NCBI RefSeq assembly: GCF_036563305.1 | Contig: NZ_DATCMQ010000006.1 | Span: forward strand, 268,233 to 332,232 | Source: Noviherbaspirillum sp. | Lineage (GTDB): Bacteria; Pseudomonadota; Gammaproteobacteria; Burkholderiales; Burkholderiaceae_D | DNA length: 64,000 nt | Reading direction: 5' to 3' | In this document: in pieces, positions 46,448 through 49,121 of the stretch | Numbering within the stretch: position 1 is the stretch's first letter | How the letters are laid out: each line of letters starts with the position of its first letter | Program-made: the position numbers and the translations under genes | The notes under the pieces: generated by a model | Told to the model about the DNA's origin: nothing | Database searches by the model: none | What the model saw: only the letters and a program-made list of their open reading frames with translations

Positions 46448-46822
46448 TCAGTTGCAGACATCGGGAACTGGCCAACCAAGTAGTTTAGCCACCCGTCTGA
46501 ACGACCATTTGAGCTGGGCTTCTGTCCCGTATCGTCCACCAGCGGCGACAGCCCGCTCGTAATACTGCGCGATGATGTCTTCTTCTGACATATGCGCGCG
46601 CTTCCCGCGCTTCGTTTCCGGACACTGCTTAACAAAGTGCTGCACGAGCGATTCGCTGTAAGACCAATCATGCCAGCGTTCCGGGGGAGTATTCCCAGGG
46701 ATGTAAAACTTCCCTTCATACTCAACTACGGAGAATTTTGGCTGTGCTCCGGAAAGGGAGCTTGCGATTTCGACGCGTGGATAGTCGTCCGGGACGTCTT
46801 CGTAATTTGCTGTTAACGGCAT
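46448..46822 (-). CDS. Mini-protein with a HipA glycine-rich-loop-like segment (paralog 1, 124 aa)
   Basis: SSLSGAQPKFSVVEYEGKFYIPGNTPP aligns with matching spacing to E. coli HipA ISVAGAQEKTALLRIGNDWCIPKGITP. The protein is clearly paralogous to the 158-aa ORF at 47730-48206. It is the last gene of the kptA operon. Confidence 0.6.
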   Translation of the reverse strand: MPLTANYEDVPDDYPRVEIASSLSGAQPKFSVVEYEGKFYIPGNTPPERWHDWSYSESLVQHFVKQCPETKRGKRAHMSEEDIIAQYYERAVAAGGRYGTEAQLKWSFRRVAKLLGWPVPDVCN

Positions 46823-46846
46823 CTTTTCCTTGAAGGGCTGTGATGC

Positions 46847-47386
46847 TTACAAGTCCGGAAACCGAAGATAATTTGACGGCACGTTCGCAGTAAGCCAAAC
46901 GCCATTGTCCGAGCATCTGAAGCTAAAGCCGTCCCTTACCATAGCCTGCGTTTCAACGACCAGCACTACCGGTGTGCCGCGCCGTGCTGCAACCGCTACC
47001 GCCGTGGTCCATGTCGCAGACAGGTGCACGTCATGCCGACGCCCGGGGAGAAGGCCATATTTCCGAATCTGAGGAAGAAAACCGCTGACGGTGCCGTGAT
47101 ACAAAACCGGCGGTGGGATTCTGATTGGCAGTTTCAGGTCAACTGCAACTGAGTGCCCTTGGGCGGCGCGAATACGGAGCCCGTCGTCGCTAACTGAAAA
47201 TCGCTGCTTATCGTTGTCGGCGACGATGCTCAACAGCTCCTCCTTGGTCATCGGGCTGCCAGCGGCTGTTGCTTTTGCCAAGAGTTCGTCGATGTCGGCC
47301 CACCCTTGTTTGTCGAGGGTAAGTCCAATGGCATCCGGGCGATGACGAAGCCAGCGACTCAGTAGCTTGCTTTTTAGTTCACTCAT
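46847..47386 (-). CDS. kptA: RNA 2'-phosphotransferase (Tpt1/KptA family, NAD+-dependent)
   Basis: LSRWLRHRPD, LDKQGWADIDELL, KQRF, IRAAQGHSV, LYHGT, GLLPGRRHDVHLS and GVWLT follow the Tpt1/KptA motif order. I prefer ATG at 47386 (MSELKSK); the ORF extends to 47428. Confidence 0.9.
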   Translation of the reverse strand: MSELKSKLLSRWLRHRPDAIGLTLDKQGWADIDELLAKATAAGSPMTKEELLSIVADNDKQRFSVSDDGLRIRAAQGHSVAVDLKLPIRIPPPVLYHGTVSGFLPQIRKYGLLPGRRHDVHLSATWTTAVAVAARRGTPVVLVVETQAMVRDGFSFRCSDNGVWLTANVPSNYLRFPDL

Positions 47387-47437
47387 CTGTTTATCCAGGA
47401 GCGGCTGCGGGCCGCACGAAGTAGACATATCTGCGAG

Positions 47438-47746
47438 TTATCCTTTTTTTGACAAACCGGGCGCAACGATTAGTTGGTTCGTCACGGCCTGGACGCGTCG
47501 GTCGGTCACCGGCTCAAATTGCTCGCTTGAGGACCCACAGTAAAAGCAGCACCTATAGCGGGCAATGGAGATTAAGCCGCTTCCATACCATTGCTCGCGT
47601 TCTTGTTGAGGTAGGTCGGCCAGATGGCGGTTCAACATCTCAACCTGCGCTAGCGCGTCCGGTTCCGAGATGCCGTTTTGGACGCTACCGCACTGCAGGC
47701 ACCTGAATCGTCCTAGTATTTTCATGAGGTCACTCGTGACGGCCAC
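47438..47746 (-). CDS. Small zinc-ribbon-like protein (102 aa)
   Basis: Two CxxC pairs (CLQCG ... CFYCG). It is tightly packed between paralog 2 and kptA. An alternative start exists at 47725. Confidence 0.55.
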   Translation of the reverse strand: MAVTSDLMKILGRFRCLQCGSVQNGISEPDALAQVEMLNRHLADLPQQEREQWYGSGLISIARYRCCFYCGSSSEQFEPVTDRRVQAVTNQLIVAPGLSKKG

Positions 47747-48206
47747 CTACTTCGCGTTTGCTTGGTGCCGATTTCAATGTCCAAGCGTCGAAAGGGGAGG
47801 GTAACGCCGCGGGCGCCCGCGGAAGAGCCGATTCCGGAGCTGTGAATCCAGCTAAGCTGGCAGCTCTCCGGGCAACCCAACGCATTTCCTCGACTGAACC
47901 GCAATCCGCTTCGAGGAGCCGCCGGACCAAGTCGGCGAGAAGCTGCCCCTTCCGTGCCAATGAACCCTTTGCGTGTTTGTCCGTTGCGATTCGCATAGCC
48001 ACGTTCGCAGCAACTTCTTCGAAGACTACCCACCGTCCATGAACCTCCGGGGGCGTGCAGCCGGGCGGACAGTACCCTCGGTTATAGGCGACAGATGAAA
48101 ACAAGGGCTGTAGTCCTATCACCTCGGCCCTTAGTCTCGGGAAGTCGTCAGGCACTTCTGAGATGCGCCACTCGGAATCGTCCCACGATATATGCGAACC
48201 AGACAT
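47730..48206 (-). CDS. Mini-protein paralogous to 46448-46822 (paralog 2, 158 aa), with a degenerate HipA-loop-like segment
   Basis: VPDDFPRLRAEVIGLQPLFSSVAYNRGYCPPGCTPPE aligns with VPDDYPRVEIASSLSGAQPKFSVVEYEGKFYIPGNTPPE. The C-terminal halves also align (EEMRWVARRAASLAGF versus AQLKWSFRRVAKLLGW). Confidence 0.6.
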   Translation of the reverse strand: MSGSHISWDDSEWRISEVPDDFPRLRAEVIGLQPLFSSVAYNRGYCPPGCTPPEVHGRWVVFEEVAANVAMRIATDKHAKGSLARKGQLLADLVRRLLEADCGSVEEMRWVARRAASLAGFTAPESALPRAPAALPSPFDAWTLKSAPSKREVGGRHE

Positions 48207-48208
48207 CT

Positions 48209-48586
48209 CTACTTGGCTCCTTTGGCTGCGAACTGGGTGGCAAAGAGCCCTGTAATAGCAATCGTGTAGATGGGATAGCCGATTTGGCGAGATACGAGCT
48301 CCATGCGTATCCAGAGGTCGAGCTCGTCCGCCAGGGTTGGAAGTAGCTCGTCCGTCTTCTTTTGGAAACGCTGCAGCCGACTCGGGTCCTGCGCGTCGAG
48401 AAGCTTCTCAATCCAGTACTTCAACAGGTCCCACACGCCTTCCATCTCGAAGCGGTCGAGCGCGCCGTCTTTGTACATTGCCATCGAGCGGGCAAGCCGG
48501 ATGAGCACCTCGACAGGAAGTTGTTTCGGCATCAGCTCGTCGCCCTCCCGATGGAGGAACTCAGCTTTCCAACGTGTTGCGTCCAT
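48209..48586 (-). CDS. Hypothetical protein (125 aa), first gene of the kptA operon
   Basis: ORF ending 2 nt before the next gene. It looks predicted-helical and I recognise no motif. Confidence 0.5.
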   Translation of the reverse strand: MDATRWKAEFLHREGDELMPKQLPVEVLIRLARSMAMYKDGALDRFEMEGVWDLLKYWIEKLLDAQDPSRLQRFQKKTDELLPTLADELDLWIRMELVSRQIGYPIYTIAITGLFATQFAAKGAK

Positions 48587-48728
48587 GTCATTTCCAGTAG
48601 TTCAAGAATCGGTGGCATGATGAGTACGGTTGCGATACAGGCCTACACACTTAAAAGAATGAGCTTCTGCCAGAAACCAAGGAGATACGTCGTCATGTCA
48701 CCGCTGAATAGCGAGAGGTCAAGTGTAA

Positions 48729-48768
48729 CGATATATGTTGCCAACGTAAACCTTGCCAACATATATCG
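48729..48768. promoter_or_regulatory. Candidate operator between the kptA operon and the divergent XRE gene
   Basis: cgatatatgttgccaac-gtaaacc-ttgccaacatatatcg: an outer inverted repeat (gatatatg/catatatc) encloses a direct repeat of ttgccaac. It lies about 27 nt upstream of the XRE start. Confidence 0.45.
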
Positions 48769-48794
48769 AGTAGATTTTGTGCGTACGGTGAGCC

Positions 48795-49121
48795 ATGCTA
48801 GCCGTCATGTCTACAGGTAAAGAAAAAGAAGAGGTGGACGCTGAATCCGCTCTTCGTGCACTGTTTGCACGTAATCTTCGTACACTCAGAATTCAAAGAA
48901 ACATCTCCCAGTACGACCTTGCTGAGCGCTCCGGCCTTCATCGCAATTTCGTGAGCGAGGTCGAGCGTGAACTTAGAAACGTGACCCTTTCCAACATTGG
49001 AAGGTTAGCTCGGGGACTAGGGATTGACCCGATGGAACTCTTTCGTCCAGTGGACGAGAATGCGGACGACGGTCCTAGGCAACTGTCGACAGGTCACAGA
49101 CGCAAGCGAGGCGAAATCTAA
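48795..49121 (+). CDS. XRE-family HTH transcriptional regulator
   Basis: LFARNLRTLRIQRNISQYDLAERSGLHRNFVSEVERELRNVTLSNIGRLARGLGIDPMELF is a classic Cro/C1-type HTH. Confidence 0.85.
   Translation: MLAVMSTGKEKEEVDAESALRALFARNLRTLRIQRNISQYDLAERSGLHRNFVSEVERELRNVTLSNIGRLARGLGIDPMELFRPVDENADDGPRQLSTGHRRKRGEI

Follow-up and report, generated by a model that had tools for sequence, protein, structure and literature searches.

The subject of this analysis is a compact operon around a gene for the RNA 2'-phosphotransferase KptA, located in a 64,000-nucleotide stretch of Noviherbaspirillum sp. DNA (contig NZ_DATCMQ010000006.1, positions 268,233 to 332,232; hereafter the window, in which positions are counted from the first letter). 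KptA is accompanied by four small open reading frames (ORFs), here named A, B, C and E, and a regulator of the XRE family lies upstream in the divergent orientation. The five co-oriented minus-strand ORFs and the plus-strand regulator described in a first-pass annotation of this DNA are all present in the ORF list, each at the position and on the strand it had been given. We use the name F0 for the protein family to which B and E belong. The features of the locus are as follows.

46448-46822, minus strand: gene E, a 124-residue F0-family protein that carries the conserved motifs VPxD[FY]P and GxQPK and is modelled as a beta-hairpin with three helices.
46847-47428, minus strand: KptA/Tpt1 RNA 2'-phosphotransferase, a 193-residue ORF with its likely start at M15 (47386), giving 179 residues.
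47438-47746, minus strand: gene C, a zinc-ribbon protein, a 102-residue ORF that has 95 residues when read from M8 (47725).
47730-48206, minus strand: gene B, 158 residues, an F0 paralog that evolves fast and has lost the motif lysine (GLQPL).
48209-48586, minus strand: gene A, 125 residues, an acidic, all-helical protein of an orphan family and the core partner of F0.
48587-48794, no strand: divergent promoter/operator spacer of 208 bp, with an inverted repeat and a gene-A-proximal element.
48795-49121, plus strand: divergent XRE-family helix-turn-helix (HTH) regulator, 108 residues, Pfam HTH_3.

The annotation had placed all intergenic gaps at 24 nt or less. The operon reading stands but the 24-nt maximum does not: judging from homologs, M8 is the start of C and M15 that of KptA, which brings the largest gap to ~51 nt. 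For comparison we collected ~60 related loci (labelled L001 onwards) from contig look-ups, one genome scan and one metagenome scan (57 loci); the metagenome scan used a closer F0 alignment, the broad F0 alignments being too diverse, and gene families were assigned by BLAST clustering and hidden Markov models (HMMs). Between the window and the diverged homologous locus L005, the ratio of non-synonymous to synonymous substitution rates (dN/dS) was 0.07 for A, 0.12 for C, 0.16 for KptA, 0.07 for E and 0.19 for XRE, and therefore the small ORFs can be regarded as real genes; the sequence comparison points to purifying selection on all measurable genes of the operon. Amino-acid identity between the same two loci is 79-86% for A, KptA and E, 42% for B and 49% for C, and B and C are the fast-evolving parts of the operon. 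The four cysteines of C, arranged as CxxC...CxxC, are kept across homologs, in agreement with its earlier description as a zinc ribbon. At E up to 1, none of the four libraries Pfam, NCBIfam, PHROGs and PADLOC gave a match for A, B, C or E. In PADLOC-DB v2 (same threshold) KptA has none either, leaving the XRE regulator as the only protein of the locus with a match there ('control protein', E 1e-18); in Pfam this regulator matches HTH_3 (E 1.4e-12). No non-coding RNA of Rfam was matched at E up to 1 within 43.8-51.4 kb.

KptA itself is readily assigned. It matches Pfam PTS_2-RNA (PF01885) over positions 6-176 of 177 with an E of 1.4e-45 and 155.9 bits (cutoff 26), belongs to PHROG 5470, and scores 235.7 bits against NCBIfam NF002014, just below the equivalog cutoff of 239. 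Its best solved relative is PDB 7kw8 (E 1.6e-42), and in an alignment with 7kw8 and 6ede the segments LRH, IRAxQGHS and R-H-x-VHLS, which we take to hold the catalytic Arg-His-Arg-Arg tetrad of Tpt1, are conserved. The ordered Tpt1/KptA motifs noticed in the first pass are thus borne out by the Pfam, NCBIfam and 7kw8 comparisons as those of a genuine KptA. The protein is basic (pI 9.4) and canonical with its predicted catalytic Arg-His-Arg-Arg residues intact, scores close to the equivalog level of housekeeping KptA, and would be expected to remove RNA 2'-phosphates in an NAD+-dependent manner. Like characterised members of PF01885, e.g., Runella slithyformis Tpt1 (PDB 7kw8), it is full-length and conserved at the catalytic positions; unlike them, it shares an operon, putatively under the control of XRE, with F0, A and a zinc-ribbon protein, a setting not described for characterised KptA genes, and its partners belong to no known family. 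In the first pass, bacterial KptA was said to lack a known physiological substrate; this is partly dated, as KptA homologs erase tRNA 2'-phosphouridine-47 (PMC9095486).

The small proteins accompanying KptA fall largely into two families. B and E had been called paralogs, and the comparison of the two bears this out: over 113 residues they are 30% identical (E 6e-16). Clustered at 90% identity, the relatives of E number 24, and a profile search of 1.84 billion representatives gave 333 F0 clusters at 50% identity (E up to 1e-3); with few exceptions these are proteins of 100-160 residues that stand alone. The most conserved features of F0 are the N-terminal [VI]PxD[FY]P motif, GxQPK and a Gly-centred hairpin, followed by TPxE, a tryptophan, CEDLA and a C-terminal W..RR.A..L.W.P helix. 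An AlphaFold2 (AF2) model of E with a pLDDT of 85.5 consists of a poorly ordered N-terminal motif region, a beta-hairpin (residues 33-40) and three helices; Foldseek found nothing significant for it in the PDB (no match with E < 1) or BFVD. Gene A founds a family of its own, with 19 clusters at 90% identity separate from F0, and its AF2 model (pLDDT 82.6) is all-helical with no Foldseek match in the PDB at E < 7. F0 and A are therefore two uncharacterised protein families with recognisable motifs and no structural relatives found. Both are acidic (median pI 5.9 for F0 and 5.65 for A), which makes them unlikely as general nucleic-acid binders or RNases; the idea of F0 as an RNase toxin was considered improbable for the same reason and because the family is often multi-copy.

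Fusions bear on how F0 and A might act. Protein P0097 joins A and F0 (hhalign 99%), and P0162, which combines F0 with a histidine kinase and transmembrane segments, suggests that F0 is a sensor or regulatory domain. A phage origin of F0 was rejected, as no member occurs in GenBank phages or IMG/VR. Plasmid matches are confined to chromid-size replicons (~1.9-2.6 Mb) of Ralstonia and Paraburkholderia, where the matching genes are annotated as hypothetical or not at all.

The related loci show which parts of the operon are constant. The L005-L008 group repeats the exact order XRE, A, B, C, KptA, E, with ~72-78% nucleotide identity over alignable genes, which upholds the five-gene block as a genuine operon that is kept elsewhere. 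Other loci depart from this order in the following ways.

L010-L012: XRE, A, B, C and E, then a reverse-oriented 112-residue gene and KptA.
L017: XRE, A, two F0 genes and HAD_SAK_2, with KptA further along, so that both enzymes are present.
L002/L003, L024, L026, L027, L061 and others: XRE, A, F0 and HAD_SAK_2.
L020: XRE, A, F0, C and Metallophos.
Massilia yuzhufengensis: XRE, A and F0 alone.

Partner counts come from the 32 non-redundant F0 loci whose flanks both extend to 1.5 kb or more. XRE occurs in 19 of these (within 3 kb, mostly divergent), A in 12, an HAD_SAK_2-like protein in 12, KptA in four, Metallophos in two and gene C in four; at least one of the three enzymes is present in 17. 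Copy numbers per locus range from one to three for F0 and from zero to two for the enzymes, and the minimal loci are XRE-A-F0 (Massilia) and XRE-A-F0-HAD. Since KptA is absent or replaced in relatives, the conserved unit is XRE, A and F0, and KptA is one of several interchangeable enzymes. Among 96 same-strand F0 neighbours, a set from which the KptA, XRE, A and C genes had been left out, the only recurrent Pfam families were HAD_SAK_2 (12), Xre_MbcA_ParS_C (4) and Metallophos (2). The HAD proteins of F0 loci keep the DxDGV nucleophile/catalytic motif. The HAD and MbcA-like partners have no PADLOC match, nor does the family F4 described below, and one Metallophos protein weakly matches PDC-S10.

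F4 is a conserved coiled-coil-like protein of ~112 residues. Its gene directly follows the last F0 gene but on the other strand, and usually lies between it and a stand-alone KptA. F4 was seen in L001, L010-L012, L016 and L017 (e.g., L010 5498-5836, minus strand) and is absent from the window.

The exchange of enzymes narrows what the locus may do. HAD phosphatases (T4 Pnkp), calcineurin-like phosphoesterases (Clostridium Pnkp) and Tpt1/KptA represent three established chemistries for the removal of RNA 2'/3'-phosphates, and an end-healing enzyme of this class is present as KptA in the window and, in relatives, as HAD_SAK_2 or Metallophos. What these F0 partners most simply have in common is therefore RNA-end phosphate processing and not NAD+ chemistry. 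Of the first-pass proposal of an undescribed NAD+-dependent toxin or defence module, the absence of a described match holds, whereas NAD+ as the defining chemistry is not supported, as KptA is missing or swapped for HAD_SAK_2 or Metallophos in related loci. Predicted RNA-repair neighbourhoods likewise connect KptA, HAD and calcineurin-like enzymes (PMC9503650), and HAD_SAK_2 and KptA domains occur in RNA repair proteins of the 'Swiss Army Knife' type (PF18143 description; PMC9503650).

We tentatively favour, at somewhat less than an even chance, an island-borne, XRE-controlled module for RNA-end processing in which the small proteins act as sensors or regulators. In such a module, XRE would repress the divergent promoter through the spacer repeats, serving as a putative operator, while A and F0 would form a complex with the role of sensor, regulator or adaptor, the VPxDFP and GxQPK motifs of F0 being its presumed interaction or ligand site. 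KptA or its substitute would remodel RNA termini made by ribotoxins or defence RNases and thereby either heal these ends or alter their fate, and the fast-evolving B and C may be the specificity-determining or conflict-facing parts. The F0-associated enzymes belong to the same classes as those of known RNA repair systems (T4 Pnkp with its HAD domain, Clostridium Pnkp/Hen1 with its calcineurin-like domain). The F0 loci differ from these systems in that no ligase, kinase or 2H domain was found in them, in that the enzymes are stand-alone rather than multidomain, and in that the core consists of two orphan small proteins and an XRE regulator.

Several observations weigh against RNA-end processing as the function of the locus. 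RNA ligases, 5'-kinases and 2H/cyclic phosphodiesterases were found neither in the operon nor, for the 96 neighbour proteins scanned, among the 25 Pfam families that were listed as most frequent, so this is not a complete repair pathway, and 15 of the 32 well-flanked loci have none of the three enzymes. The association with KptA is confined to one F0 subclade, and it may partly reflect island synteny, as KptA sometimes lies outside the operon beside a DUF4011 helicase or its remnant. Moreover, F0 adjoins or is fused to antitoxin-type Xre/MbcA/ParS domains, which points to toxin-antitoxin logic, and the roles given to A and F0 are purely inferred, since neither model has structural homologs. 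Gene calling in the metagenomic loci was also crude, with greedy ORF selection and an HAD HMM based on only two sequences, although 12 of the HAD matches were confirmed by Pfam.

The antitoxin-type domains lead to the main alternative explanation, which is in essence that of the first pass: a toxin-antitoxin or abortive-infection module. In it, growth would be arrested by the enzyme, KptA in the window and HAD or Metallophos in other loci, as an effector held in check by acidic F0 and/or A, with XRE autoregulating and phage or stress releasing the effector; KptA could then ADP-ribosylate 5'-phosphate ends of RNA or DNA. A divergent XRE gene and a compact operon in a defence island with Wadjet, a DUF4011 helicase-nuclease and a reverse transcriptase (RT) fit this explanation, as do related loci beside a Cap4 nuclease, OLD-TOPRIM with UvrD, a KAP NTPase and SLFN. 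The charges are suitable, with acidic F0 and A facing a basic KptA, and B and C evolve fast. In protein P0039, F0 is fused to the Xre/MbcA/ParS C-terminal toxin-binding antitoxin domain, and in four loci it stands beside proteins of this type. This domain neutralises toxins of the ART superfamily. KptA is itself an ART-superfamily enzyme (PMC9503650), and the existence of KptA/Tpt1-like toxins acting by ADP-ribosylation of nucleic-acid ends has been put forward as a hypothesis (PMC11833690).

An MbcA-like protein directly upstream of an F0 gene is seen in L004 (7308-7907 and 8001-8423), L043 (4222-4629 and 4944-5375) and L045, and no RES or ParT toxin is present at any of the three. The L004 protein carries an APRDFP motif resembling the N-terminal motif of F0; such a motif occurs in only one of 422 unlabelled neighbour ORFs, and a motif search found two MbcA-like neighbours. 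The window shares with RES-Xre, MbcTA and ParST systems an XRE-type regulator, an enzyme of the same ART superfamily as their toxins and, through its relatives, F0 proteins fused or adjacent to the Xre_MbcA_ParS_C domain. It differs from them in several respects: the window operon contains neither half of a RES/ParT toxin and Xre_MbcA_ParS_C antitoxin pair according to Pfam, and no DUF2384; its KptA is a canonical transferase and not a RES NADase; and its XRE gene is divergent rather than co-transcribed. The antitoxin domain is found only in some related loci and the one fusion, and there without a RES partner. Other points also speak against a toxin-antitoxin module. The KptA of the window lies within 4 bits of the NCBI equivalog cutoff with no sign of a divergent toxin clade, XRE-A-F0 loci exist without any enzyme, F0 copies (1-3) and enzymes (0-2) are not paired one to one, and no PADLOC model matches any component. 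To our knowledge, phosphatases do not figure among the recognised classes of toxin effectors. Taken together, we regard a growth-arresting enzyme held by F0 or A as unlikely.

The first-pass annotation had further proposed that the 124-residue protein E resembles the glycine-rich ATP loop of the kinase HipA. This part of the proposal is reproducible as a 26-residue local alignment, while relatedness to HipA is unsupported. When an 80-sequence F0 profile was compared with E. coli HipA and with a HipA profile, hhalign returned a single alignment, F0 22-47 with HipA 150-176, at 38% identity, with probabilities of 1.0% and 1.8% and pairwise E values of 0.03-0.06; the HipA profile was shallow (homologs all at least 73% identical), which limited the sensitivity of this comparison. 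A true derivative of the HipA loop, split off as in HipBST and binding nucleotide through this segment, would also be consistent with the AF2 model of E, which puts a loop and beta-hairpin at F0 22-47, with a weak HipA_C match (E 0.094) of one of 80 F0 members in Pfam, and with an F0 copy in L017 that reads SLSGVQEKLALV and is closer still to HipA. The remaining 79 members gave no HipA match, and the motif lysine is lost in most B-type paralogs. A search of PDB sequences with the F0 profile did not return HipA at E up to 10, and the HipA N-lobe-like matches that had been expected for E did not appear, as Foldseek of its AF2 model against the PDB and BFVD gave none and the PDB search no HipA, HipT or HipS; the fold predicted for E is not that of HipA. 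The earlier observation that B and E lack a kinase core agrees with the absence of any Pfam match to the HipA_C kinase core in the operon proteins at E up to 1.

The HipA homology of B and E was thus followed by Pfam, PDB profile search, AF2 with Foldseek and hhalign, and what is left of it is a local motif below significance. Because the profile, fold and Pfam tests were negative, the likeness is possibly an analogous phosphate-loop-plus-hairpin motif and not homology, and we consider descent from HipA highly improbable. The common ground with HipBA and HipBST is an XRE-family (HipB-like) regulator and the local S-x-x-G-x-Q-x-K and hairpin motif of F0, which resembles the HipA P-loop; the window operon differs in that it has no kinase core, in that neither profile nor fold comparison gives significant similarity, and in its gene order and orientation.

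The spacer between A and XRE agrees with the earlier description of a divergent regulator with a repeat in the spacer, and the repeat is operator-like. A 19-nt inverted repeat (48729-48747 and 48750-48768, 89% complementary) encloses two direct copies of TTGCCAAC, and the spacer of L005 has the same candidate operator. Closer to gene A, at ~48620-48650 in the window, lies an element TGTAT(A/C)GCAAnCGTAT, often followed by CATCATGCCA. It is kept in at least eight loci (L001, L003, L005, L010, L014, L016, L019 and L020) although the proteins of those loci are only 50-80% identical, and it persists in L001, where A is missing. A promoter scan of the spacer gave no match to the sigma-70 consensus, and a terminator scan likewise yielded nothing informative. 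The gene-A-proximal element could serve as promoter, operator or leader.

In other loci the spacer carries a different direct repeat, two copies of ATTACACTGTTT. Operator sequences that differ between loci are expected of immunity-type repressors, and they raise a third explanation, namely that XRE, A and F0 serve the regulation or maintenance of the mobile island itself, as a switch comparable to a repressor with anti-repressor and sensor, and that the enzymes are passengers of a permissive operon. In favour of such a switch, XRE adjoins a small AlpA/excisionase-like HTH_17 gene in five of the 32 loci and an integrase in L010 and L017, the L010 integrase sharing its 648-residue architecture with window ORF 17674-19620. 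Loci differ widely in the genes that lie between A and the last F0, and the fusion of F0 to a histidine kinase also suits a sensory switch. The window module, however, lies ~29 kb from the integrases, embedded among cargo genes, and many F0 loci have no integrase or excisionase nearby. Moreover, the RNA-end enzymes recur specifically (HAD_SAK_2 in 12 of ~44 loci), and no other enzyme family does so in the scanned set, which is difficult to reconcile with random passengers. We therefore rate an island switch with passenger enzymes as quite improbable.

The setting in a mobile defence island is itself well founded. G+C falls from ~0.65 to ~0.55 between 15 and 56 kb, and the last 17 nt of a tRNA-Ser(GCU) gene at 15208-15301, TCCCTCCGTCTCCGCCA (15285-15301), are exactly repeated at 55668-55684 as a candidate attachment site; from the repeat and the drop in G+C we conclude that the operon is contained in an integrated island of ~40.4 kb. 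The cargo comprises two integrase-like genes, a WYL regulator with Wadjet JetABCD, an HNH protein and Nmad2/Nmad3-like genes, and the operon lies between a DUF4011 helicase-nuclease and an RT protein. The defence-island setting described in the first pass is thereby upheld through Wadjet, the helicase-nuclease and the RT on the tRNA-Ser island.

The helicase-nuclease adjoining the module (37877-44482) is a 1990-residue protein with DUF4011, SF1 helicase, MTES_1575 nuclease and DUF3320 regions and is accompanied by the HNH gene. The same helicase, or a 118-residue C-terminal remnant with 61% identity, is convergent to KptA in Noviherbaspirillum and in L010/L011 (L001 11019-16457; L010 6605-6961), so that KptA, the helicase and the XRE module appear to travel together. 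A 354-residue ORF on the plus strand (45177-46241), convergent to gene E, has a marginal HTH_3 match at residues 86-102, no other family match and no homolog in the related loci examined. On the far side of the operon, directly beyond XRE, two minus-strand genes occupy 49310-49942 and 49939-50859. The first region holds a 111-residue Nmad3-like ORF, which matches the Pfam model of 247 positions over its first half only (E 7.7e-23), and then a 94-residue ORF; because the Nmad3-like ORF is half-length with a separate ORF next to it, the gene may be split or frameshifted. Upstream of it, a 306-residue ORF has a weak Nmad2 match (E 0.011). The neighbouring gene had been called an RT-nitrilase: the 1324-residue protein at 51317-55291 (plus strand) does have an RVT_1 reverse-transcriptase domain (E 5.8e-12) with a long C-terminal region, but Pfam reported no nitrilase at E up to 1e-3.

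Further towards the tRNA end, a WYL-domain regulator is followed by Wadjet-like JetA, DUF4194 (JetB), SMC-like JetC and JetD at 29565-37394. On the minus strand at 26347-28366, a gene of the aGPT-Pplase3/ADDT family (E 1e-90) adjoins a thymidylate-synthase-like gene, a pair typical of thymidine hypermodification that is found here on a chromosomal island and not in a phage.

Judged from its sequence, the locus may be of a known kind, an RNA-end-processing conflict module, built on two new protein families, F0 and A. The first-pass statement that no system of this composition has been described is supported by the lack of matches for A, B, C and E in the PADLOC, Pfam, NCBIfam and PHROGs searches above, and a literature search, which did not reach the RNA-repair survey of Burroughs and Aravind of 2016 (PMC5062991), gave no paper describing this composition.

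We know of no convincing physiological context for bacterial KptA in the decades since it became known. The window places the enzyme in a compact, regulated and conserved operon, and in relatives its position holds other RNA-end phosphatases, which makes the question of which bacterial RNA ends are processed, and why, directly testable. It is tempting to speculate that A-F0 is a widespread (>300 clusters) sensor or gatekeeper of interchangeable RNA-terminus-modifying effectors and thus a new class of immunity or counter-immunity acting on RNA 2'/3'-phosphate ends, a possible role that we nevertheless consider on the unlikely side. If A-F0 is merely regulatory, the result would be a modest gain in annotation. 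If it gates enzymes that modify RNA ends, this would be a new logic for defence-island biology, and bacterial KptA would gain a physiological role in biological conflict.

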